Assembly: GCA_029009095.1 (NCBI GenBank)
Contig: JAQXJT010000014.1
Span: forward strand, 2,247 to 66,246
Direction of reading: 5' to 3'
Source of the DNA: a bacterium
Lineage (GTDB): Bacteria; Bacillota; Clostridia; Oscillospirales; Oscillospiraceae
Length of the DNA stretch: 64,000 bases
Part shown: piece after piece, positions 3,387-63,878 of the stretch
How the letters are laid out: every line of letters starts with the position of its first letter
Numbering within the stretch: position 1 is the stretch's first letter
Notes under the pieces: generated by a model
The model's input: only the letters and a program-made list of their open reading frames with translations
What the model was told of the DNA's origin: nothing
The model's database searches: none
Program-made: the position numbers and the translations under genes

Positions 3387-3833
3387 ATGGGCACGGAAAA
3401 GGTCGAACTCACCGTTTTGTGTCTCGTACACCGGGACGGATGGTATCTTTTGCAGGATCGGGTGAAGGAGGATTGGCGGGGCTACGCGCTCCCCGGCGGC
3501 CACATCGAACCGGGGGAGTCCATTGTGGACGCCGTCATCCGGGAGATGAAGGAGGAGAGCGGCCTGACGGTTCTTCATCCCCGGCTGTGCGGGGTGAAGC
3601 AGTTCCCCATCGAGGGAGGACGGTATCTGGTCTTTCTCTTCGAGGCGCACGAATTCGAGGGGGAACTGTGCAGCTCTGAGGAAGGACAGATGCACTGGCT
3701 GCGGCGGGAGGAACTGGCAAGCGTCCCGCTGGTGCCGGACTTTGCGGAGCTGCTGCGGGTGATGCTGGACGAGAGCCTGACGGAGTTTCAGTATGTTGTG
3801 GAGGGCGGGGGCTGGCAGGCCATTACGAAATAG
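3387..3833 (+). CDS. NUDIX hydrolase
   Basis: Nudix box GGHIEPGESIVDAVIREMKEESGL. Confidence 0.85.
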   Translation: MGTEKVELTVLCLVHRDGWYLLQDRVKEDWRGYALPGGHIEPGESIVDAVIREMKEESGLTVLHPRLCGVKQFPIEGGRYLVFLFEAHEFEGELCSSEEGQMHWLRREELASVPLVPDFAELLRVMLDESLTEFQYVVEGGGWQAITK

Positions 3834-4344: not shown

Positions 4345-4989
4345 GTGGCTTTTGATTACAAGAAAGAGTACAAAGAGTTTTACCTGCCCGGGTCGAAGCC
4401 CGGGCTGGTCACCGTCCCGGCCATGAACTATCTGGCCGTCCGGGGCCTGGGCGACCCCAACGAGGAGGGCGGTGCGTACAAGGCGGCCATCTCCCTGCTC
4501 TACGGCGTGGCATACACCATCAAAATGAGCAAAAAGGGCGACCACCGGATCGAGGGCTACTTCGACTATGTGGTGCCGCCGCTGGAGGGCTTCTGGTTTC
4601 AGGAGGGCGGCGCGGGCTTCGATTGCACGCGCAAGGACGATTTCCACTGGATCTCCGTGATCCGCCTGCCGGACTTCGTCAGCCGGGAGGACTTCCGCTG
4701 GGCCGTCGAGGAGGCCACGCGGAAGAAAAAGCAGGACTTCTCCCCCGTGGAGTTCCTTACGGTGGAGGAGGGGCTGTGCGTGCAGATGCTGCACCATGGC
4801 TCCTTTGACAGCGAGGCGGCCAGCATAGCGCGGATGGACGCCTTTTTGGAGGAACAGGGCTACGAAAACGACTTCTCCCCCACCCGGCTCCACCACGAGA
4901 TCTACCTCTCCGACGCCGCCAGGGTCCCGGTGGAAAAGTGGAAAACGGTGATCCGCCACCCCATCCGGAAAAAGGAGGCGCGGCCATGA
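4345..4989 (+). CDS. GyrI-like small-molecule-binding domain protein
   Basis: GTG start 9 nt after AAGGAGG. N-terminus FDYKKEYKEFYLPGSKPGLVTVPAMNYLAVRG is typical of GyrI-like/SOUL-type proteins. Confidence 0.6.
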   Translation: MAFDYKKEYKEFYLPGSKPGLVTVPAMNYLAVRGLGDPNEEGGAYKAAISLLYGVAYTIKMSKKGDHRIEGYFDYVVPPLEGFWFQEGGAGFDCTRKDDFHWISVIRLPDFVSREDFRWAVEEATRKKKQDFSPVEFLTVEEGLCVQMLHHGSFDSEAASIARMDAFLEEQGYENDFSPTRLHHEIYLSDAARVPVEKWKTVIRHPIRKKEARP

Positions 4990-6222: not shown

Positions 6223-7893
6223 TCAACCCCAGGGGCGCGTGGGTCCTTTGGCCTCTGTGGAGAGCACGAGCTGGTCATAGTATTCGTACCAGACCTCCTG
6301 TCCCTCTTCCAGTCCCGAGAGGATCTCCGCCCATTCTCCGTCGCTCCAGCCCACGCTCACCCGGACGGCGCCGGTGAATTCCCCGGTCTTTTCCTCGTAG
6401 CCGGTGTAGGCCACCGTGCTCTTTCCCTCGTCCGTCAGCGCGGCCACCGGGAGGACGAGCACGTTCTCCCGCCGCTCGAGAACAAATGTCCCGGAGACAT
6501 TCATGCCCGGAAGCATCCCCTCGGCGTAGGGAAGGGTGAGGGTCACGGCGAATTTGCTGCTGCCGCCGTTGTTGGAGCCAAATTTGGAGAGAGAGGTGAC
6601 CGTGCCGGTGAAGCTCCGCCCGGGCAGGGCGTCCACGGTGAGGAGGGCCGTCATACCCTCGTGAAGCTCCCCGATGTCCTGCTCGTCGATGGCCATGGCG
6701 ACGCTCATCTCGGCCACGGGCACCACGGTGCAGAGCACGGTGTCGGCGGCGGTGTCACTCTGCTGTCCGGACTGCTGCGAGCCGCTGCCCGCGCCGTTCC
6801 CCAGGCTGCCGCTCCAGCCGCCGGCTCCGCCCTGGCCGCCGGCGCCGCCCTGGCCCGCTTCGCCCTCACCGGGCGTTTCTCCGGGAATGGGCGAGGGGCT
6901 GGGCGAGGGGGTGGGATCCCAGTCCGCGGCGCGGCCCAGTTTCACCACCCACACGATGCTGCCGCCCGCGTCGTAGGTGAAGAGCAGTATATCCCCGCTC
7001 TCGGCCCCCGCGGCGGCGCTCCACTCCTCTCCCTGCCGCGCGAACATGGGCGCCCCGCCGGGATAGGTGCCCCGGGCGGTCATGGCGTCCAGAGAGGCGT
7101 CCACGGCGGAGAGGTCGGCAAAGTCCCCAATGGCGAGGGGGTTGGGGTTCATGCGCATCTCCATGGCTCCGTCCACCACGCTGTCCACCACGCCCACGAA
7201 ACTTAGATAGCTCTCCCCATCGTCCCCGTAGGGGGTGTTGCTGGCCAGCAGCGTCACCCGGGCGGAGGAGGCGGAGGAGGCGAGGGACTGCACCACGCTC
7301 CTGTCCAGCCCGTCCACCAGTCCCGCCTCAGGGGCGGTGACGGCGCCGTTATAGTAGAGCCGGAACAGCTCCAGCAGCGTCTCCTCGCAGTTGCGGTGCC
7401 GCTCGGCCAGGGTCATGTACTCGGCGTAGTCTCCGTAAGCGTCGCCTGAGAGCTCCCGGCCGTTGACACAGACCTTGCCGTTTTCATCGGCTGTGAGAGG
7501 CCCGGGGGTCACGGCGATGGCGTTCATGCTCTCGCGGATGTCCTCCAGCGTCTGCTGCGTCTCCCGCACGGCGGACATGACGGACACCCGGTCCACCGCG
7601 GCCAGCGCGTCGCCTTTTTCCACCATGTCCCCGTTGTGCGCCAGCAGCTCCGTGATCTTCACGCCGGAGGGCACGGTGACGCTGCTGGCCTCGCCGCCGC
7701 TGAGGGCCCCGCCGCTGCGGAGGGTTCGCTCCATGTCCCGGCGCTCCACGGCGCATTGGAGGACGCTGGGGAGAATCTCGCCGTCCTCCTCGGGCTGCTC
7801 CGTTCCCGGCAGGGTGAGCAGCAGCGCCGCGACCAGCGCCAGCGCCACGGCGCCCGCCCATTTCCCGATGGTTCCTTTTCTGGTTTTCTCCAT
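6223..7893 (-). CDS. HlyD/MacA-family membrane-fusion (adaptor) protein, paralog 2
   Basis: N-terminal TM anchor, lipoyl-like motifs (GDMVEKGDALAAVD), and a C-terminal beta-barrel/MP region (LPGMNVSGTFVLERRENVLVLPVAAL). Internal P/S/G-rich low-complexity linker. Confidence 0.75.
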   Translation of the reverse strand: MEKTRKGTIGKWAGAVALALVAALLLTLPGTEQPEEDGEILPSVLQCAVERRDMERTLRSGGALSGGEASSVTVPSGVKITELLAHNGDMVEKGDALAAVDRVSVMSAVRETQQTLEDIRESMNAIAVTPGPLTADENGKVCVNGRELSGDAYGDYAEYMTLAERHRNCEETLLELFRLYYNGAVTAPEAGLVDGLDRSVVQSLASSASSARVTLLASNTPYGDDGESYLSFVGVVDSVVDGAMEMRMNPNPLAIGDFADLSAVDASLDAMTARGTYPGGAPMFARQGEEWSAAAGAESGDILLFTYDAGGSIVWVVKLGRAADWDPTPSPSPSPIPGETPGEGEAGQGGAGGQGGAGGWSGSLGNGAGSGSQQSGQQSDTAADTVLCTVVPVAEMSVAMAIDEQDIGELHEGMTALLTVDALPGRSFTGTVTSLSKFGSNNGGSSKFAVTLTLPYAEGMLPGMNVSGTFVLERRENVLVLPVAALTDEGKSTVAYTGYEEKTGEFTGAVRVSVGWSDGEWAEILSGLEEGQEVWYEYYDQLVLSTEAKGPTRPWG

Positions 7894-35737: not shown

Positions 35738-36727
35738 ATGAAAACTCTCAAACGCATCGGCATCCTCACCAGCGGCGGCGACGCGCCGGGGATGAACCCC
35801 TGCATCCGCGCCATCGTCCGGGCGGCCACCGCCGAGGGCATCTCCTGCATCGGCATCCGCCGGGGTTATGCCGGACTGATCAACAGCGATATTTTTGAGC
35901 TGAGCAACTCCGCCGTGGACGGGTTGACCAAGCAGGGCGGCACCATCCTCTACACCGCCCGCTGCGACGAGTTCCGGCAGGAGGAATACCAGAAAAAGGG
36001 CGCAGCCACCTGCAAGCACCTGGGGCTGGACGGCGTGATCGCCCTGGGCGGCGACGGCACCTTCCGGGGCGCCGAGGCGCTGTCCCGGCAGGGCGTCATG
36101 GTGGTGGGCGTCCCCGCCACCATCGATAACGACATGGGCTGCACCGAGTACACGCTGGGCTTCGACACCGCCTGCAACACCGCGCTGGACGCCATCGACA
36201 AGCTCCGGGACACCGGGCAGTCCCACGAACGGGTCTCCGTGGTGGAGGTCATGGGCCGCAACGCGGGCCATCTGGCCCTCTATACCGGCCTGGCCGCCGG
36301 GGCCAGCGCCGTGCTGCTCCCCGAGCGCCCCGTGAATTTTGAAAAGGATGTGCTGGAAGTCATCCGCCGGGGCTGCATCCGGGGCCGCCGCCACCACATC
36401 GTGGTCATCGCCGAGGGCGTGGGCCACGCCACCACCTACGCCAAACGAATTCAGGACGCCACCGGCATCGAAGCCCGCGTCACCGTGCTGGGCTATATCC
36501 AGCGGGGCGGCGTACCCTCCGCCCGGGACCGGGCCAGCGCCGGACTCATGGGCGTCCACGCCCTGGACTGCCTCCGCCGCTATGACGAGGCCCAGGCCGT
36601 GGTCATCCAGAAGGGCGACATCGCCCACCTCCCCCTCCACGAAGCCAACGGCATGGTTCGCTCCCTGGACGAGACCATGTCCACCATCTGCAACCGGGTG
36701 GACGGTTCCTGGTACTGGGACCGATAA
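35738..36727 (+). CDS. pfkA: ATP-dependent 6-phosphofructokinase
   Basis: GILTSGGDAPGMN, GGDGT, PATIDND and MGR motifs. Confidence 0.95.
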   Translation: MKTLKRIGILTSGGDAPGMNPCIRAIVRAATAEGISCIGIRRGYAGLINSDIFELSNSAVDGLTKQGGTILYTARCDEFRQEEYQKKGAATCKHLGLDGVIALGGDGTFRGAEALSRQGVMVVGVPATIDNDMGCTEYTLGFDTACNTALDAIDKLRDTGQSHERVSVVEVMGRNAGHLALYTGLAAGASAVLLPERPVNFEKDVLEVIRRGCIRGRRHHIVVIAEGVGHATTYAKRIQDATGIEARVTVLGYIQRGGVPSARDRASAGLMGVHALDCLRRYDEAQAVVIQKGDIAHLPLHEANGMVRSLDETMSTICNRVDGSWYWDR

Positions 36728-36735
36728 GCTCCCCT

Positions 36736-36770
36736 CCCCCGGCCGGGTATGTGGGCCGGGGGCTTTTTTT
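36736..36770 (+). terminator. rho-independent terminator after pfkA
   Basis: cccccggcc-N9-ggccggggg followed by cttttttt. Confidence 0.75.
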
Positions 36771-36833: not shown

Positions 36834-36862
36834 TTGACAAAAGGAGACGACTGTTGTAGTCT
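36834..36862 (+). promoter_or_regulatory. candidate promoter of the BlaI/BlaR1-like operon
   Basis: TTGACA at 36834-36839 and a weak -10 (TAGTCT) 17 nt downstream, inside the operator palindrome. Confidence 0.4.
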
Positions 36863-36887
36863 CTAAGCAGATTACAACTGTCGTCTC
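36844..36887. promoter_or_regulatory. 19-bp-arm inverted repeat (candidate BlaI-family operator)
   Basis: gagacgactgttgtagtct-ctaagc-agattacaactgtcgtctc, 17 of 19 arm positions complementary. Contains TGTA/TACA half-sites. Lies 19 nt upstream of the regulator ATG. Confidence 0.6.
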
Positions 36888-36905
36888 TATCAGGGAGGGA
36901 GATCC

Positions 36906-37289
36906 ATGAACCAACTGGCCGAAAAGATTTCCGACGCGGAGCTGTCCATCATGCAGGTGCTCTGGGACGCGGAGGAGGGTCTGTCCATGACGGAGCTTCG
37001 TCGCCGTGTCCAGCAGCGCACCACATGGGGCAGCACCACGGTCAAGACGCTGGTGCAGCGTCTCACCGCCAAGGGCGTGCTCCGGCAGGAGAAGAGGGAG
37101 GTCTTTTACTACATACCCCTCATCACCGAGGCGGAGTACAACGCCTCCGCCAACAAGAGCTTCATCAACCGGGTCTACCGGGGCAGCGCCCGGGATCTGG
37201 TGGCGGCGCTGCTGCGCTCCAACGATCTCAGCGACGAGGATGTATCGGAGCTGAGAGAGCTGTTCCATGTGGAGGGCGCCGATGAGTAA
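36906..37289 (+). CDS. BlaI/MecI/CopY-family transcriptional repressor
   Basis: Winged-helix N-terminus (ISDAELSIMQVLWD...TELRRRVQQRTTWGSTTVKTLVQRLTAKGVL) and C-terminal dimerisation helix. Confidence 0.85.
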   Translation: MNQLAEKISDAELSIMQVLWDAEEGLSMTELRRRVQQRTTWGSTTVKTLVQRLTAKGVLRQEKREVFYYIPLITEAEYNASANKSFINRVYRGSARDLVAALLRSNDLSDEDVSELRELFHVEGADE

Positions 37290-39255
37290 GTTTCTGTGCA
37301 CGCTGCTGAGCATGTCGCTGGGCGGCAGCCTGATGGCGCTGCTTCTGCTGCTGCTCCGGCCTCTGCTCCACCGCCGGGGCCGCCATACGGCGCTCTTTTA
37401 CCTCTATCTCCCGGTGCTGCTCCGCCTGCTGCTGCCTCTGCCGGGCTTTCTGCCCTTCTCCCTGCCCCAGACCACGGAGCTCACCGAAACGGTGACCGCA
37501 CAGGATCGAGCCCCCGTCGCCCGGCCCATCCATGTGGTGGACGATATGACTGCCGGGATGGGAACCTTGGAGGACGCCGCTACGTCTGAACTCACGACCG
37601 GCTCTGCGGAGCGCCTTCCTTACGCGGTGGACAGCGACGCCGCGCCCGTCTCCGCTCCTTCCTACTCCCCCCGGTTCAGCCCGGACGGCGCGACCATCGC
37701 CGCCGCCGTCTACTTTGCCGGCGTGGCGTTTGCCTTTCTCTACAATTTTCTGGGCTACGCCCGCTTCGCCCGGGCGGTGCGCCGCAGCGGGACGCGGGCG
37801 CCGGAGAGCGCCTACGCCGCCCTGGCCGGGCTCTGCCCCGAGGGCACGGTGGGGCTTCTGTGTTCCCCGGCCGCCCCGGTGCCCCTGCTCATGGGACTGC
37901 GCTGCCCGCTCATCGTCCTGCCCCCCGACACCGTGGGTGAGGACGAGCTTCCCGATGTACTGCGTCACGAGCTGACCCATTGCCGGCGGCAGGATCTCTG
38001 CTACAAGTGGCTGATGGTGCTCACCCTCTGCATCCACTGGTTCAACCCCCTGCTCTACGTCCTTCGCCGCACCATGGCCGCCGACTGTGAACTCAGCTGC
38101 GACGAGGACATCATCCGGGACATGAACCCCCGGGAGCGACAGCACTACGGCGAGACGCTGATCCGTCTCTCCGCCCACGACCATCTGCCCCCCTCCCTGC
38201 CCGCGGCCACTCTCAGCGAGGGCAAGGAGCAGCTCCGCACCCGCCTCCTCTCCATCATGCACGCCGCCCCCAGCACCTCCGCGGCTGTCCTTACCTGGCT
38301 GCTCTGCGCCGTGATCCTCTGCGGCTGCGGCAGCATCATCGGCAGCGGGGCCCGGCGGGAGGCGGAGGCCCCTGCCCCGGACGGTCTCACCCGCCCCCTC
38401 CGGGACGAGGAGGGCCGATGGAGCACCGACGGCGACGTCTGGTACCAGCCCGGTCAGTTTGTCTATGACAACCTTGGCCGCTGGAGCACCGACGGCAACG
38501 TCTGGTACGGGAACGGCTACTGGACCACCGACGGCAACACCCTCTACGATTACTCCCTCTATCTGGGTGAGCGCGTTCCCCTTTACGCCACCAACGGCAA
38601 TGTAGATCCTTCCCGCTGCGAGCCGGTCGCCGTCTCCACGGTGGATGAACTGCTCGCCGCCCTGGGGGAATACAGCTACATCACCCTCTCCCCGGGGGTC
38701 TACGACCTCTCCCAGGCCAGCGTGGACTTCTACCCCAGCGTCCACTGGAAGCCGGAGGGCGGAGAACAGAAGATGCTCTCCTCCGACCTCTACAGCACCG
38801 TGATCCGGGGCGCCACCGGCGACAGCGCGGAAGTAACGCTGCTCTTCGGCAGCGGCAAAAACGCCGCTCTCACCTTTTCCCGCTGCTACGGCCTCAACTT
38901 TCAGAATTTGACCTTTTCCTCCTCAGCGGGTGTGGATAACCCGGGACATCTGCTGAGCTTCGAGGACTGTTCCAATGTCTACTTTGGCAACTGCGACTTC
39001 ACCTCCAACGGCGGCGCCGCCGTCCATCTCCTCAACTCCGGCTTTGTCACCCTGGAGAACTGCTCTTTCCAGCGCACCCTGCAGGGCAATGTGTACGCGG
39101 AGAACCACCGGGTGCTTTTGTGCAGGGACTGCGACTTCACCGGCTCCGGCAGCTCCCTCCCCACTCTTCTCAACAGCACCGCCGTCAACTTTCAGGGCTG
39201 CACCCTCAACGGGCAGGACATGGACGGGGACGAGGCCTATTATGTGTACAGCTAA
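37282..39255 (+). CDS. BlaR1/MecR1-like M56 peptidase with a non-canonical extracellular domain (W-x-T-D-G-N repeats plus parallel beta-helix-like repeats)
   Basis: ATGA overlap with the repressor stop. TM helices. HELTHCRRQD zinc motif. Late TM with an LCGCG box, then the repeat and beta-helix region. No penicillin-binding S-x-x-K sensor. Confidence 0.8.
   Translation: MSKFLCTLLSMSLGGSLMALLLLLLRPLLHRRGRHTALFYLYLPVLLRLLLPLPGFLPFSLPQTTELTETVTAQDRAPVARPIHVVDDMTAGMGTLEDAATSELTTGSAERLPYAVDSDAAPVSAPSYSPRFSPDGATIAAAVYFAGVAFAFLYNFLGYARFARAVRRSGTRAPESAYAALAGLCPEGTVGLLCSPAAPVPLLMGLRCPLIVLPPDTVGEDELPDVLRHELTHCRRQDLCYKWLMVLTLCIHWFNPLLYVLRRTMAADCELSCDEDIIRDMNPRERQHYGETLIRLSAHDHLPPSLPAATLSEGKEQLRTRLLSIMHAAPSTSAAVLTWLLCAVILCGCGSIIGSGARREAEAPAPDGLTRPLRDEEGRWSTDGDVWYQPGQFVYDNLGRWSTDGNVWYGNGYWTTDGNTLYDYSLYLGERVPLYATNGNVDPSRCEPVAVSTVDELLAALGEYSYITLSPGVYDLSQASVDFYPSVHWKPEGGEQKMLSSDLYSTVIRGATGDSAEVTLLFGSGKNAALTFSRCYGLNFQNLTFSSSAGVDNPGHLLSFEDCSNVYFGNCDFTSNGGAAVHLLNSGFVTLENCSFQRTLQGNVYAENHRVLLCRDCDFTGSGSSLPTLLNSTAVNFQGCTLNGQDMDGDEAYYVYS
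38413..38610 (+). repeat. coding tandem repeats W-x-T-D-G-N-x-W-Y (3-4 copies) in the BlaR1-like protein
   Basis: GRWSTDGDVWY, GRWSTDGNVWY, GYWTTDGNTLY, and a degenerate YATNGNVD. Confidence 0.7.
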
Positions 39256-39284
39256 ACCATGAACATAGAAAGGACTATTTTGCC

Positions 39285-40913
39285 ATGACGCTCTCGAAAA
39301 AGCAATTTTGTCTCATCACCCTTGTGCTCTCCGCCGTGTTCCTGGCCTGCCTGCTGCTGCTGTGCGGCTGCGGCGAGAAGGCGGAGCCGGAAGTCCCCGG
39401 CGGCGACACCCCGGAGTCCCGCTACGATGAGCTGGGCAACTGGACCACGGACGGCAACATCTGGTACGCCAGCAGCGGCAACGCCTGGAGCACCGACGGC
39501 AACATCTGGTACGACTGGCAGTACGCCCGGCCCGAAACCGTGGACGGCGTCACACGCGCCGTTCCCGTCTCCTACGCCACCGAGGGGGATGTGTATGCCA
39601 CCGACGGGGACCTCTACGCCACCTACGGCAACGCCGAGCAGCTCATCTCCTACGCCACTGACGGCAACGTGGAGACCGGGAGCGAAGTCCATGTGAGCAA
39701 TGTGGACGAGCTTCTCGCCGCCCTGGCCCCGGGCGCCCACATCTACCTGGCCCCCGGTGTGTATGATCTCAACGCCGCCACCCCCGCTCTCTACGATTAC
39801 TGCTATTTCCGCCCCGTCTGGGAGGGCGGCCACGAGCTGGTGGTCTGCTCTCTTGGCAATTGCATCCTGGAGGGCGAGAGCGGCGTCGCCACGGATACGG
39901 TCATCCTGCAGGCGTCCCGCATGGCCAGCGTGCTGGCGCTGGAGGAGTGCTACGGCCTCCAGCTCCGCAATCTCTCCGTGGGCCACACCCCCGGCGAGGG
40001 CTGCATGGTGGCCGCGTTGAAAATGAAGAACTGCGGCAGCGTCTATCTGGAGAACTGTGACCTCTACGGCTGCGGCGCCTACGCTCTGAACGCCAGCGAA
40101 GCCCGGGGTGTCACGCTGAAGGACTGCAACCTCCACGATTGCAGCTACGGCGCTCTGTCTCTGGACAACTGCGAGAGCTTCCTCTTCCGCAACTGTAGCT
40201 TCACCAACAGCGGCGAATTCGACACCGTTTTCCTCTATAACTGCGGCTGGATCCAGTTTGAGGACTGCTCCTTCACGGACAACCGCAGCAATGTCTTCCT
40301 CTCCGCCGCCGCCTCCTACCGCCTCTTCTTCGACAACTGCACCATCTCCGACAGCTCCTTCCACTATCTCTTCTCCCTGCCCTCCGTCTACACTGCGCCG
40401 GAGTTCACCAACTGCCGCTTCGAGAATGTCACCGTCAGCAAGACCACTGTCAGCGAGGAGCCGTTCATCGACCCGGATCACTTCAGCTCCCAGTATGTTC
40501 TCATGGACGGGGTCGAGTTCCATGTGGCCGGCTCCGAGCTTCCCGAGGGCGTGAGCTATGTGCCCGACGGCGGCTCCACGGAGGGCGGCGAAGTCTATGA
40601 CGACGCGGACACTTTGGCCGTTTACGACGTGGTGGAGAAATTCTTCAACGCATACCTCCAGGGCGACGCGGACACCATGGGCAGCATGATGTCCGACTAT
40701 CAGAAGCCCGTGGACATCTGGAGCGGCACAGGCTACGCCACCAGCTACGAGTTCCGGCGTCTCGAGGATGCCGCCGCCCTCCGCGAAGGGGAGGAATGTG
40801 AGGTCTCCGTGGCCTTCGTCCCCGCCGGACAGGACAGCTACGTCTATCTGGTGCTGAACCTTGTCCGCACCGCCGACAGCTGGCTGATCACCTGGTACGG
40901 TCTGGACGCCTGA
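39285..40913 (+). CDS. lipoprotein paralog of the BlaR1-like sensor domain (repeats plus beta-helix plus extra C-terminal domain)
   Basis: Signal peptide with lipobox LLLCGC. GNWTTDGNIWY and NAWSTDGNIWY repeats. VSNVDELLAALAPGAHIYLAPGVYDL matches VSTVDELLAALGEYSYITLSPGVYDL in the upstream protein. About 22-25-aa N-C-x-F/L repeats. Confidence 0.7.
   Translation: MTLSKKQFCLITLVLSAVFLACLLLLCGCGEKAEPEVPGGDTPESRYDELGNWTTDGNIWYASSGNAWSTDGNIWYDWQYARPETVDGVTRAVPVSYATEGDVYATDGDLYATYGNAEQLISYATDGNVETGSEVHVSNVDELLAALAPGAHIYLAPGVYDLNAATPALYDYCYFRPVWEGGHELVVCSLGNCILEGESGVATDTVILQASRMASVLALEECYGLQLRNLSVGHTPGEGCMVAALKMKNCGSVYLENCDLYGCGAYALNASEARGVTLKDCNLHDCSYGALSLDNCESFLFRNCSFTNSGEFDTVFLYNCGWIQFEDCSFTDNRSNVFLSAAASYRLFFDNCTISDSSFHYLFSLPSVYTAPEFTNCRFENVTVSKTTVSEEPFIDPDHFSSQYVLMDGVEFHVAGSELPEGVSYVPDGGSTEGGEVYDDADTLAVYDVVEKFFNAYLQGDADTMGSMMSDYQKPVDIWSGTGYATSYEFRRLEDAAALREGEECEVSVAFVPAGQDSYVYLVLNLVRTADSWLITWYGLDA
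39435..39675 (+). repeat. coding tandem repeats W-x-T-D-G-N-x-W-Y (2 clear plus about 3 degenerate) in the lipoprotein
   Basis: GNWTTDGNIWY, NAWSTDGNIWY, YATEGDVY, ATDGDLYAT and YATDGNVE. Confidence 0.65.
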
Positions 40914-40926
40914 TCGACCCAACAAC

Positions 40927-40972
40927 AAAAAACGCATCCACCGTCCGTTTGGAACGGTGGATGCGTTTTTCT
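40927..40972. terminator. bidirectional rho-independent terminator
   Basis: aaaaaacgcatccaccgt-N9-acggtggatgcgttttt between convergent genes. Confidence 0.75.
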
Positions 40973-61870: not shown

Positions 61871-62781
61871 GCCTCCAGATAGCGCACGGCGGAGAGGGCC
61901 GCGTTGGCCCCGTCGCCCACCGCCGTGGTCAGCTGCCGCACGGCCTTCTTCCGGCAGTCCCCGGCCACGAAAAGCCCCGCCTGCCCGGTGACGCCGTCCT
62001 CTCCGCAGTCAGCATAGCCCTCCGAGAGGGGCAGCAGAGCGGCGAAGGGCTCTGTGGCGGGCGTCTGGCCGTAGCACACAAAGAGCGCGGCCGCCGCCAG
62101 CTCCCTCGGCTCTCCGTCCGTGGCGCGGCGCAGCGTCAAAGAGGAGAGCTGCCCCCCGCTTTCGTGGAGGGCTTCGATGGTGTAGGGTGTGCAGAAGTCC
62201 ACATTCTCCCGCTCCCGCAGCCGCCGCAGCAGCGCCGCCTCTCCCCGGAACTGCTCCCGCCGGTGGATCACCGTCACCCGGCTGCAGATCTCCGCCAGCA
62301 GCAGCGCCTCCTGCAGCGCCGTGTCCCCGCCTCCGGCCACGGCCACTTCCTGTCCCTTATAGAAGTCCCCGTCGCAGACCGCGCAGTAGGACACGCCCCG
62401 GCCCAGCAGCTCCTCCTCCCCGGGGAGGTGCAGCCGCCGGTGGGCGGCCCCCACCGCGAGGATGACGCTCCTCGCCATAAAGCGCTCCCCCTCCCCGGTC
62501 TCCGCCGTCCAGATCCCGTCCGCGTCCCGGCGGAGCCCCGTCACCGTGCCCACATCCGTGTCCGCGCCCTGTCCCAGGGCCTGCCCCAGCATCTCCTCGG
62601 AGAGGGTCATGCCGGAGACGCTGCCCACCCCGGGGTAGTTCTCCACCCGGGGGGAGTAGGCGATCTGGCCGCCGTAGCCCTCCTTTTCGAGAATGAGCAC
62701 GCTCCTGCCGCTGCGCCTGCCGTAGATGGCCGCCGTCAGTCCCGCCGGGCCGCCGCCCACAATGAGAATATCGTAGATCAT
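61861..62781 (-). CDS. trxB: thioredoxin-disulfide reductase
   Basis: GGGPAG FAD motif, redox-active CAVCDG, and a second GGG NADPH motif. Confidence 0.9.
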   Translation of the reverse strand: MIYDILIVGGGPAGLTAAIYGRRSGRSVLILEKEGYGGQIAYSPRVENYPGVGSVSGMTLSEEMLGQALGQGADTDVGTVTGLRRDADGIWTAETGEGERFMARSVILAVGAAHRRLHLPGEEELLGRGVSYCAVCDGDFYKGQEVAVAGGGDTALQEALLLAEICSRVTVIHRREQFRGEAALLRRLRERENVDFCTPYTIEALHESGGQLSSLTLRRATDGEPRELAAAALFVCYGQTPATEPFAALLPLSEGYADCGEDGVTGQAGLFVAGDCRKKAVRQLTTAVGDGANAALSAVRYLEAWA

Positions 62782-63878
62782 GCCGTCTCCTCCTGTCGTT
62801 CCTCCGGAGAGCGCCGCAGTTGGCGGCGCACCCGGTTGATATGTCTCTCAAAATCCCCGCTGTTGAGCAGTTCCGCCAGCAGCAGCTGCTCGAACACCGG
62901 CACCGTACAACTGTAAAACCCCAGTTTCTCCCCGTAGCGCTCCAGCAGCGGCGGCGGCAGCAGCATATAGCCCACCCGCAGTCCCGGGCCGATGGTGCGG
63001 GAGAAGGAGTTGAGATAGATCACGCCCTCCTCCGGGGACAGGGAGAACACCGTCGGCTCGGCCCGGCGGGAGAGGGTGAACTCCGAGTCGAAGTCGTCCT
63101 CCACCAGGATGCCCTGCCGCTCCCGGGTCCAGCGCAGATAGGCCCCGCGCCGCTCCATGGAGGCGGTGACGCCGCTGGGAAAGCTGTGGTAGGGCGTCAC
63201 ATGGAGCACCCGGCCCGTGGCCCGCTCCAGCTCCCCGTCGGGGATGCCGTCCTCCCCCAGCGCCAGCCCCTCGCAGCGGATGCCCTGGGCCTCGTAGACC
63301 TGCCGGATGGGGCTGTAGGAGGGTTCCTCCAGCGCGATCACGCTCTCCCGCCCCAGCAGCTGCGCCACCAGCGAGTAGAGATACTCCGCCCCGGAGCCCA
63401 CCACGATCTGCTCCGGGGTCACGGCGATGTCCCGGCTGCGCAGCAGATAGTCCCGCAGCGCCTCCCGCAGCTCCTCGCAGCCGTTGTTGGGCGAGCGCTC
63501 CATGAGCCGCTCCTGCCACTCGGAGATGGTGCGGCGCATGGCCCGGCTGAGCACCGAAAAGGGGAAGGGGAACTCCCCGTACTCCCCGCTGCCGCCCCGG
63601 TGCGTCTCCCGCCGCACATCCGCGGGACGGCAGCCCCCCTGCATGTTCAGCGCGTAGTAGCCGCTGCGCTGCCGGGGCTCGGCATAGCCCTCCTCGCACA
63701 GCAGGGAGTAGGCGTGCTCGGCGGTGATGACGCTGATGCCCAGCTCCATGCACAGCTGCCGCTTGGAGGGCAGGCGGCTCCCCGGCGGGTATCGCCCTGC
63801 GGTGATGTCGTCCCGGAGCTGGGCATAGAGCTGCCAGTAGGCGGGACGGCCTTTCTCTTTTTGAATGGTATATTTCAT
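62778..63878 (-). CDS. MocR/GabR-family regulator (GntR wHTH plus aminotransferase-like domain), short and lacking the PLP lysine
   Basis: GntR HTH (LPSKRQLCMELGISVITAEHAY). Fold-type-I-like domain in which the S-F-S-K position reads SFSR (R294, codon 62997-62999). Only 366 aa. Confidence 0.8.
   Translation of the reverse strand: MKYTIQKEKGRPAYWQLYAQLRDDITAGRYPPGSRLPSKRQLCMELGISVITAEHAYSLLCEEGYAEPRQRSGYYALNMQGGCRPADVRRETHRGGSGEYGEFPFPFSVLSRAMRRTISEWQERLMERSPNNGCEELREALRDYLLRSRDIAVTPEQIVVGSGAEYLYSLVAQLLGRESVIALEEPSYSPIRQVYEAQGIRCEGLALGEDGIPDGELERATGRVLHVTPYHSFPSGVTASMERRGAYLRWTRERQGILVEDDFDSEFTLSRRAEPTVFSLSPEEGVIYLNSFSRTIGPGLRVGYMLLPPPLLERYGEKLGFYSCTVPVFEQLLLAELLNSGDFERHINRVRRQLRRSPEERQEETA

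Follow-up and report, generated by a model that had tools for sequence, protein, structure and literature searches.

A BlaI/BlaR1-type locus of an Oscillospiraceae bacterium in which a degenerate beta-helix ectodomain is paired with an intact, predicted lipoprotein paralogue

What does a BlaI/BlaR1-type system respond to when it has no penicillin-binding sensor, and why would it encode its sensor domain twice? These questions are raised by three co-oriented genes on the plus strand of contig JAQXJT010000014.1 from an Oscillospiraceae bacterium (assembly GCA_029009095.1), of which a stretch of 64,000 nucleotides was analysed (hereafter the window). The genes encode a BlaI-like repressor, an M56-family protease and a predicted lipoprotein, and they are located between pfk (35738-36727) upstream and a convergent amidohydrolase gene downstream. 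Judged from its sequence, the locus is an autoregulated switch of the BlaI/BlaR1 type that works by regulated proteolysis and does not sense beta-lactams. For the duplicated domain we prefer a split receptor, with a probability of roughly 0.4: the lipoprotein would carry the functional site, and the copy fused to the protease, a pseudo-module, would read the state of the lipoprotein by contact.

The sensor domain of BlaR1 is a turnover-deficient relative of the class D (OXA-type) beta-lactamases. No transpeptidase or penicillin-binding domain (PF00905) was matched by Pfam in the M56 protein of the window, and the NCBIfam models for BlaR1 and MecR1 cover its protease part alone, with scores far under their cutoffs (78 against 400 and 53 against 1200, respectively). 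Its C-terminus matches the Beta_helix family instead (PF13229; amino acids (aa) 535-643, E=1e-8, 35 bits, cutoff 25.9). The original prediction, made from the sequence without database searches, had noted both the missing penicillin-binding sensor and a periodic, beta-helix-like C-terminus, and both are borne out. The membrane and catalytic part is that of a BlaR1-type protease. The 657-aa protein had been assigned to M56 by a HELTH motif (aa 229-233), and PF05569 indeed spans aa 7-323 (E=7e-44, 150.5 bits, cutoff 31). A profile built from the window protein and ten homologues matches residues 1-316 of S. aureus BlaR1 (8EXS/8EXP, E=4e-14). H229, E230, H233, E270, D274 and E275 are invariant in an alignment of 11 sequences; the HExxH site, for which degeneration had been considered, is intact on full alignment and in comparison with BlaR1 8EXP/8EXS. 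The CELSCDE stretch contains the candidate third zinc ligand. There are hydrophobic segments at aa 7-25, 38-61, 139-157, 243-261 (short) and, as the last, 335-353, and their layout is that of BlaR1.

The ectodomain of the M56 protein has a paralogue in the product of the next gene. The two proteins align with 32% identity over 311 aa (BLASTP, E=1e-38), which removes the earlier concern that they might not align significantly. The lack of a penicillin-binding domain, the intact HExxH site and the paralogous ectodomains agree with the BlaI/M56 unit, lipoprotein included, that had been proposed to answer to a signal which is not a beta-lactam. The lipoprotein had further been described as having the same repeats and beta-helix as the M56 protein. 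The paralogy stands, but the fused module has lost a His/Cys motif that the lipoprotein keeps. In an alignment of 40 sequences the near-invariant columns, in lipoprotein numbering, are G233, H234, C240, G242, L260, G262, C263, G264 and C286, and the family motif can be written as GHT..C.GG / LYGCG / DCS. The window lipoprotein retains H234, C240, LYGCG and HDCS, whereas the fused module has SSSAG..NPGHLL / FTSNG / QRTLQG at these sites.

A census of 270 modules, scored by regular expression for the His and GCG elements, places this loss in its family context (loci of relatives carry L numbers and proteins P numbers below). Both elements are kept in all 41 modules of free lipoproteins (41/41), in 215 of the 216 modules of two- and three-module M56 proteins and in 1 of 11 single-module M56 proteins. 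Nine of the ten motif-less single-module proteins were recognised by regular expression; the tenth, P0002, which is near-identical to the window protein, was recognised by alignment, its regular-expression match to the His element being spurious. Wherever the next gene could be read, a degenerate fused module is followed by a gene for a repeat-bearing lipoprotein (7/7 distinct loci: the window, L005, L006, L011, L012, L046 and L047), and the M56 proteins of these loci are 33-53% identical to that of the window. Module and motif of the downstream lipoprotein are intact in six of the seven; the contig of L046 stops after 68 aa, in which lipobox and repeats are visible. The pairing, for which a survey of related genomes had been suggested with the original prediction, thus recurs in relatives. 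The sole single-module M56 protein with an intact motif (P0006; L001-L003) is without a lipoprotein, and eight two-module M56 loci have none downstream. Since two tandem modules are found in 124 of the 142 proteins examined, one fused and one free module would keep the count at two. These comparative data favour a paired, co-sensor role of the lipoprotein over that of a decoy or an output, without proof.

In the split receptor, the lipoprotein would be the working copy, which binds or processes the ligand. Outside the membrane, the fused pseudo-module would dock to this copy and read its state, and the two pieces would together make up the receptor. Engagement of the ligand, most likely a glycan or a cell-envelope polymer, would activate the cytoplasmic metalloprotease; by analogy with BlaR1, the protease would then cleave BlaI and the operon would be de-repressed, raising repressor, sensor and lipoprotein together. 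We are more doubtful of the stronger claim that this is the first BlaR-type split receptor, in which the ectodomain was duplicated and the fused copy became a pseudo-module that solely reads its free, membrane-anchored paralogue.

Several points weigh against a split receptor. C240, C263 and C286 follow one another at intervals of exactly 23 residues, one coil each, and the motif may therefore be a structural stacking ladder whose loss would be little informative on ligand binding. P0006 shows that a single fused module can be enough. The family also has free lipoproteins whose genes are distant from any M56 gene (L009/L010), and these therefore have an autonomous role. All seven loci come from related Oscillospiraceae, so that shared ancestry inflates the apparent co-occurrence. 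Finally, where MecI and BlaI have their scissile bond, N101-F102, the window repressor has A101-L102, and its cleavage is therefore assumed.

Free lipoproteins without a neighbouring M56 gene can be accommodated if the lipoprotein is purely the regulated output, an extracytoplasmic glycan-binding or glycan-modifying effector induced by the switch, while the fused module by itself senses the same polymer or its product. Such an arrangement resembles that of canonical BlaR1, where, as is generally known, a turnover-deficient sensor is separate from the effector enzymes. A lipoprotein co-transcribed behind the putative BlaI operator must be induced with the system, and the degenerate module is conserved and may have a binding surface of its own. 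In C. difficile, the strongest member of the CenIR regulon is likewise a gene directly 3' of the pair whose product is exported (Kurtz et al., J Bacteriol 2026, PMC13492132). This explanation leaves two findings unaccounted for, the strict pairing of motif loss in the fused module with a free intact copy and the motif-keeping two-module M56 proteins that have no downstream lipoprotein; we regard it as the main rival, somewhat less likely than the split receptor. The homologous fold and the shared repeats would also permit competition or heteromers, so that the lipoprotein could be a decoy or negative regulator that competes for the ligand or holds the M56 ectodomain off, its induction resetting the switch. 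Induction together with the sensor would provide a built-in adaptation. No direct evidence speaks for this role, BlaI autoregulation already supplies negative feedback, and competition for a ligand makes little sense if the fused module has lost its ligand site; a decoy is thus quite improbable.

It can also be asked whether the fused ectodomain is a sensor at all. Between orthologues its degenerate module is 46-47% identical, while the protease core reaches 62% and the extracellular loop (aa 61-135), the least conserved part (17-30% across homologues), only 28%. By this measure the module is still under selection and not decaying. In front of it lie the W-x-T-D-G-N-x-W-Y repeats, of which three or four had been counted; three clear W-x-T-D-G-N/D-x-W/L units (aa 380, 401 and 414) and a weaker YATNGNV unit are present. 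The repeats have no Pfam match even at E<=10. Units of the W/Y-x-T-D-G-N-x-W/Y type are restricted to the single-module subclade, where they occur in M56 proteins and lipoproteins alike, and in every member the last unit, (Y/F)-A-T-D/N-G-N-V, stands immediately before the helix cap. The module itself opens with a typical beta-helix cap, V-S-T-V-D-E-L-L-A-A-L...P-G-x-Y-D-L. Our impression is that these aromatic, glycine-rich repeats recall cell-wall or choline-binding repeats.

Being specific to one subclade and common to both proteins, the repeats could carry the signal themselves. The cue, e.g. envelope stress or contact with a wall polymer, would in that case enter through the repeats, the membrane helices or the loop at aa 61-135, and the beta-helix pair would be a structural or adhesive surface component. 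An ABC-2 transporter gene and a GntR gene of YtrA size in relatives hint at envelope stress, and many BlaR-like proteins with short or unstructured tails are presumed to signal (Kurtz et al., 2026; PMC13492132). Well over 100 clusters, however, maintain the fusion of beta-helix and M56, an argument for its importance in signalling, and the conservation of the degenerate module and the variability of the loop point the same way. An ectodomain that is no sensor is therefore very improbable.

The split receptor places the functional site in the lipoprotein, and the features of this protein bear on what the ligand might be. Its start is taken as ATG 39285; the longest open reading frame opens at 39120, which was judged an unlikely start. 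The N-terminus comprises a signal peptide and a lipobox, L26-C27-G28-C29, within MTLSKKQFCLITLVLSAVFLACLLLL-C-G-C29, and orthologues and paralogues have LTAC, LAGC or LIGC boxes. With a signal peptide that ends in a lipobox Cys, the 542-aa product is a predicted lipoprotein. PF13229 matches it with E=2e-14 (53.9 bits, cutoff 25.9). A model was built with AlphaFold2 (AF2) from a 40-row alignment of hand-trimmed modules, as the single-sequence model had a predicted local distance difference test score (pLDDT) of 45. The overall pLDDT of the model is 75, with values above 90 for the helix (aa 130-385), 65-85 for the C-terminal domain and low confidence for the repeats.

Foldseek comparison of this model with the PDB returned only generic right-handed beta-helix proteins at a probability of ~1.0, namely tailspike depolymerases, pectate and alginate lyases, AlgE epimerases, the PfbA adhesin and RbmB, with E values of 1e-6 to 1e-4, ~10% identity and template modelling (TM) scores of at most ~0.5. 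A sequence search of the PDB gave a best E of 0.0075, and the rhamnogalacturonidase model scored 16 bits against a cutoff of 500. The catalytic constellation of a characterised family was not recognised in the beta-helix, for which the matches are at fold level. A characterised sensor family with a known ligand, which might have overturned the proposal, did not emerge either, as Pfam reports the generic Beta_helix family and Foldseek generic enzymes and adhesins. The fold of the modelled helix points to glycan polymers as a possible class of ligand. Membership in NosD (PF05048) was considered and rejected, the scores being 19.6 and 12.7 bits with a cutoff of 23.6.

Compared with the M56 ectodomain, the lipoprotein is extended at its C-terminus by ~210 aa, and not by the ~110 first estimated. 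The extension comprises about three more coils, a linker and an alpha+beta domain of ~100 aa, which is restricted to the lineage of the window and absent from the lipoproteins of L011 and L012. TcpC (E=0.0015, 18.8 bits, cutoff 27) is matched below threshold and SnoaL_3 at E=0.21; the secondary structure of the AF2 model would fit such a family, and the domain may be NTF2-like.

The last transmembrane helix of the M56 protein may hold a trace of how the fused copy arose. This helix resembles the signal peptide of a lipoprotein in having a basic stretch, a hydrophobic core and then L-C/A-G-C, and its LCGC box is identical to the lipobox of the neighbouring lipoprotein. Of 153 M56-beta-helix proteins (P0002-P0121 among them), at least 119 carry a lipobox-like motif, which was also looked at in loci L017, L022, L026, L027 and L033. 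Some Clostridial M56 proteins without a beta-helix carry such a motif too, and one subclade has a site of the A-x-A type instead. The motif may be the fossil of a fusion with a lipoprotein gene or a real site for Lgt and Lsp. If these enzymes did use it, even the fused module would leave the protease as a lipoprotein of its own, with wholly non-covalent signalling as the consequence.

The cytoplasmic end of the proposed switch is the repressor, whose assignment to the BlaI family has been confirmed by PF03965 (E=7e-28, 97.7 bits, cutoff 22.6) and by an end-to-end alignment with MecI (1OKR, aa 5-120, E=4e-18); it also aligns with BlaI 1SD4. The helix that surrounds A101-L102 is conserved, and cleavage may take place at this bond or elsewhere. 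A CopY-type copper repressor was rejected on account of the missing C-terminal Cys and CxCxxxxCxC motif and of a TIGR02698 score of 74 with a cutoff of 122.

As can be seen in Table 1, a promoter, an operator and two terminators frame the genes, and by these elements the locus is predicted to be one transcription unit of three co-transcribed genes. The start codon of the M56 gene (ATG 37282) overlaps the blaI stop codon (TAA, 37287-37289) by 8 nt (ATGAGTAA), instead of the 4-nt ATGA-type overlap that had been described. The ATG of the lipoprotein gene lies 29 nt 3' of the M56 stop codon; no terminator is found between them, and the spacer has no stable hairpin (-2.8 kcal/mol). The promoter was missed by a consensus scan because its -10 hexamer matches only TAnnnT. 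TTGACA and the spacing are kept in L001, L004 and L005.

Table 1. Coordinates of the features of the three-gene locus (positions in the window).
Feature	Position	Strand	Description and basis
Intrinsic terminator of pfk, 5' boundary of the unit	36736-36770	+	GC-rich hairpin of -22.9 kcal/mol, then T7
Sigma-70-type promoter	36834-36862	+	-35 TTGACA (36834-36839), 17-nt spacer, -10 TAGTCT (36857-36862); read from sequence
Putative BlaI-type operator	36844-36887	+	Two dyads, GACGACTGTTGTAGTC and GATTACAACTGTCGTC, in a 19-nt inverted repeat; overlaps the -10 hexamer
blaI-like repressor gene	36906-37289	+	127 aa; PF03965
M56 sensor-protease gene	37282-39255	+	657 aa; PF05569 and PF13229
Catalytic core of the M56 protein	37966-38106	+	HELTH (aa 229-233) and CELSCDE (aa 269-275); aligns with HEYAH...NEVEADR of BlaR1
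Last transmembrane helix of the M56 protein (aa 335-353)	38284-38342	+	Lipobox-like L-C-G-C at its end; L346, G348 and C349 invariant
W-x-T-D-G-N-x-W-Y repeat linker of the M56 protein (aa 379-442)	38416-38607	+	Sequence repeats; no Pfam match
Degenerate beta-helix module of the M56 protein (aa 446-657)	38617-39252	+	PF13229; family His/Cys motif lost in alignment
Lipoprotein gene, paralogue of the M56 ectodomain	39285-40913	+	542 aa; signal peptide, PF13229
Six W/Y-x-T-D/E-G-N/D repeat units of the lipoprotein (aa 52-130)	39438-39674	+	Sequence; low-confidence hairpins in the AF2 model
Beta-helix module of the lipoprotein (aa 133-385)	39681-40439	+	Motif G233-H234, C240, L260-x-G262-C263-G264, C286; PF13229
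C-terminal alpha+beta domain of the lipoprotein (aa 440-540)	40602-40904	+	AF2 model: two helices, four to five strands, pLDDT 65-85
Strong terminator, 3' boundary of the unit	40927-40972	.	Hairpin of -30.7 kcal/mol, A run before and T run after

A palindromic operator had been proposed ahead of blaI, and the comparison with relatives lends weight to it. The arms of the inverted repeat (36844-36862 and 36869-36887, 19 nt each) are 89% complementary, its two TACA/TGTA-type dyads (36846-36861 and 36870-36885) are placed over the -10 hexamer, and the palindrome is present in a single copy in the window. No further BlaI operators were found within these 64 kb. In L004 and L005, TTGACA is followed by GACTACTGTTGTAGTC and TTACAAnTGTAGTCTC, and the same holds for L001, whose M56 protein is just 35% identical. 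Position and sequence of the operator are thus kept where the M56 proteins share only 35-52% identity, which is well beyond chance. As the putative operator overlaps the -10 hexamer of the one promoter ahead of the unit, binding of the repressor should silence the three genes together. The original prediction had placed the genes between two strong terminators. The one downstream is indeed strong (z=-8.2; 0/200 shuffles as stable) and could, by its A and T runs, serve both directions; the one upstream has the right form, but its strength is ordinary (z=-0.8 against GC-rich shuffles). A sigma-70-like site (39215-39243; AGGACA, 17 nt, TATTAT) was seen in the 3'-terminal part of the M56 gene, 42 nt before the lipoprotein ATG. 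It may be an internal promoter that gives BlaI-independent basal expression of the lipoprotein.

The surroundings of the unit were compared with those in related loci. In the metagenome contigs L004, L005 and L006, blaI and the M56 gene follow pfk as in the window, with M56 proteins that are 50-53% identical, and L006 shares with the window the downstream flank (amidohydrolase gene ... RNase J) as well. The lipoprotein gene follows the M56 gene in L005 and L006, its product being 44% identical; L004 ends 285 nt into the next gene. An adjacent blaI-like gene is found in nearly all related loci scanned. The three genes had been described as a self-contained unit, which is true of the window but not of relatives in which an ABC transporter and a GntR-family gene follow. 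Here, genes for an ABC ATPase, an ABC2_membrane_5 permease and a GntR protein of ~120 aa come after the system (L001 8199-10103; L011 10037-11903; L012 3551-5408), with or without an intervening lipoprotein gene, and they may form an export or immunity module that is linked to it in function. The ABC-2/GntR trio was considered for the window and rejected as absent; a GntR-like match at 62778-63878 corresponds to a protein of 366 aa, which has a long C-terminal domain and is unrelated to the 120-aa GntR proteins of the relatives.

The branch to which this locus belongs is large. A search with the full-length M56 protein found 405 proteins among the 8,000 candidates scored, and nearly all of the top 120 combine PF05569 and PF13229. 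Most of them have 900-1,150 aa, and the few that are named belong to Oscillospiraceae metagenome-assembled genomes (MAGs) under the title 'right-handed parallel beta-helix repeat-containing protein'. The M56-beta-helix architecture occurs in well over 100 protein clusters, which are mostly from Oscillospiraceae MAGs. An exhaustive HMMER search with the module profile returned 3,517 representatives at 50% identity, 393 of them with E <1e-30; among the best 141 of the 3,517 are 33 M56 fusions and 82 proteins with a lipobox start. Judged by the gut and rumen MAG titles of related loci, the beta-helix branch appears to be concentrated in Oscillospiraceae. The exact BlaI sequence occurs on 190 contigs, and the consecutive NCBI accessions MDY5100558-60 from an Oscillospiraceae MAG are named as a beta-helix protein, an M56 family metallopeptidase and a BlaI/MecI/CopY regulator. 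The genome contigs were also scanned with M56 patterns, which gave relatives of at most 43% identity and reached no close GTDB representative, and with the repeat peptide as a pattern, which confirmed no relatives. No paper that describes M56 together with a beta-helix was found in the literature. The three-gene architecture is abundant, generically annotated and uncharacterised rather than unseen, and no description was found, as far as the search went, of a pseudo-module paired with an intact lipoprotein.

Comparison with known systems can help to place the locus. With BlaI/BlaR1 and MecI/MecR1 of S. aureus it shares the gene pair, the winged-helix repressor, the pattern of M56 segments and the HExxH...E site, as well as TACA/TGTA-type operator dyads over the promoter and autoregulation. 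It differs from them in several respects: the sensor is a beta-helix with no penicillin-binding domain, no beta-lactamase or PBP2a gene is part of the unit, the repressor gene comes first with an 8-nt overlap, the repressor has A-L at the scissile N101-F102 position, and the sensor domain has a paralogue in a lipoprotein with a gene of its own. PetR/PetP of Synechocystis reportedly places a BlaI-type repressor under an M56 protease that answers to copper. PvmSR of P. aeruginosa is said to be an atypical BlaIR pair in virulence regulation, and BlaIR of M. tuberculosis another atypical pair. Like the window unit, these three combine a repressor with an M56 protease and a cue that is not a beta-lactam; unlike it, they lack both a beta-helix and a paralogous lipoprotein, and their ectodomains are of another kind or missing.

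Surface lipoproteins that detect a cue and pass it to a membrane signalling protein are found in the pairs NlpE with CpxA and RcsF with IgaA. Their likeness to the split receptor is at the level of the concept, since, as is generally known, they work with histidine kinases or phosphorelays and their lipoproteins are not paralogues of a sensor ectodomain. The glycan enzymes and adhesins with a beta-helix (pectate and alginate lyases, AlgE, phage tailspikes, PfbA and RbmB) belong to the same fold class as the window modules, whereas the His/Cys motif of the window family matches no characterised enzyme family that we recognised.

A survey of ~15,000 M56 proteins found 254 architectures; a transpeptidase domain occurs in only ~6% of the proteins, and ~96% have a neighbouring blaI-like gene (Kurtz et al., 2026; PMC13492132). 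BlaIR systems that do not respond to beta-lactams are reported to be widespread, with signals that are for the most part still to be found. The beta-helix is not among the nine architectures with at least 100 InterPro entries in that survey. In CenIR of C. difficile, the main controlled gene encodes an exported protein just downstream, as in the window; CenR has a short, mostly unstructured tail in place of a beta-helix. CDR_0474, the protein encoded downstream, is small; neither a relationship between it and the CenR tail nor a pairing of sensor and paralogue is described (Kurtz et al., 2026; PMC13492132). With more than 100 fused clusters and ~3,500 module clusters at 50% identity, the beta-helix branch is large, and the pairing of pseudo-module and intact lipoprotein offers a testable handle on one non-beta-lactam BlaIR system. 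The lipoprotein ectodomain may be soluble and could then be used in glycan or ligand screens, the operator-promoter region provides a ready reporter, and the motif residues can serve as mutational targets. A split receptor, if true, would add sensing by an accessory lipoprotein to the BlaR mechanism and would provide a clean case of pseudo-domain evolution inside a signalling protein.

Some further observations concern the loci of relatives. The operon adjoins a NAGPA...RecR block in L011 and L047, which in L006 lies further downstream, and in L046 (349-1920, the locus of P0005) pfk is on the opposite strand to the blaI operon, while the two are co-oriented in the window and in L004-L006. The unit keeps one chromosomal neighbourhood while its surroundings rearrange. 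In L007/8 and L018, which have two-module M56 proteins, a two-module lipoprotein gene with its own promoter lies upstream. BlaI boxes ahead of these free lipoprotein genes (L007, L018) were considered and rejected, as the shared words are those of a promoter (extended -10) and of a different TTCTTAAGAA palindrome. A TCTTAAGAA palindrome is located just 5' of the -35 hexamer in both the free two-module lipoprotein promoters and the blaI promoters (L007 ~4380-4390 and ~7495-7505; L018 ~3755-3765 and ~6295-6305). It is absent from the window promoter, and its presence in L007 and L018 suggests a second, shared regulator there. The intergenic flanks of the free lipoprotein gene in L007 (3990-4400 and 6600-7440) are filled with GC-rich repeats of ccgtaggggc...gcccg units, which resemble repetitive extragenic palindromic (REP) elements.

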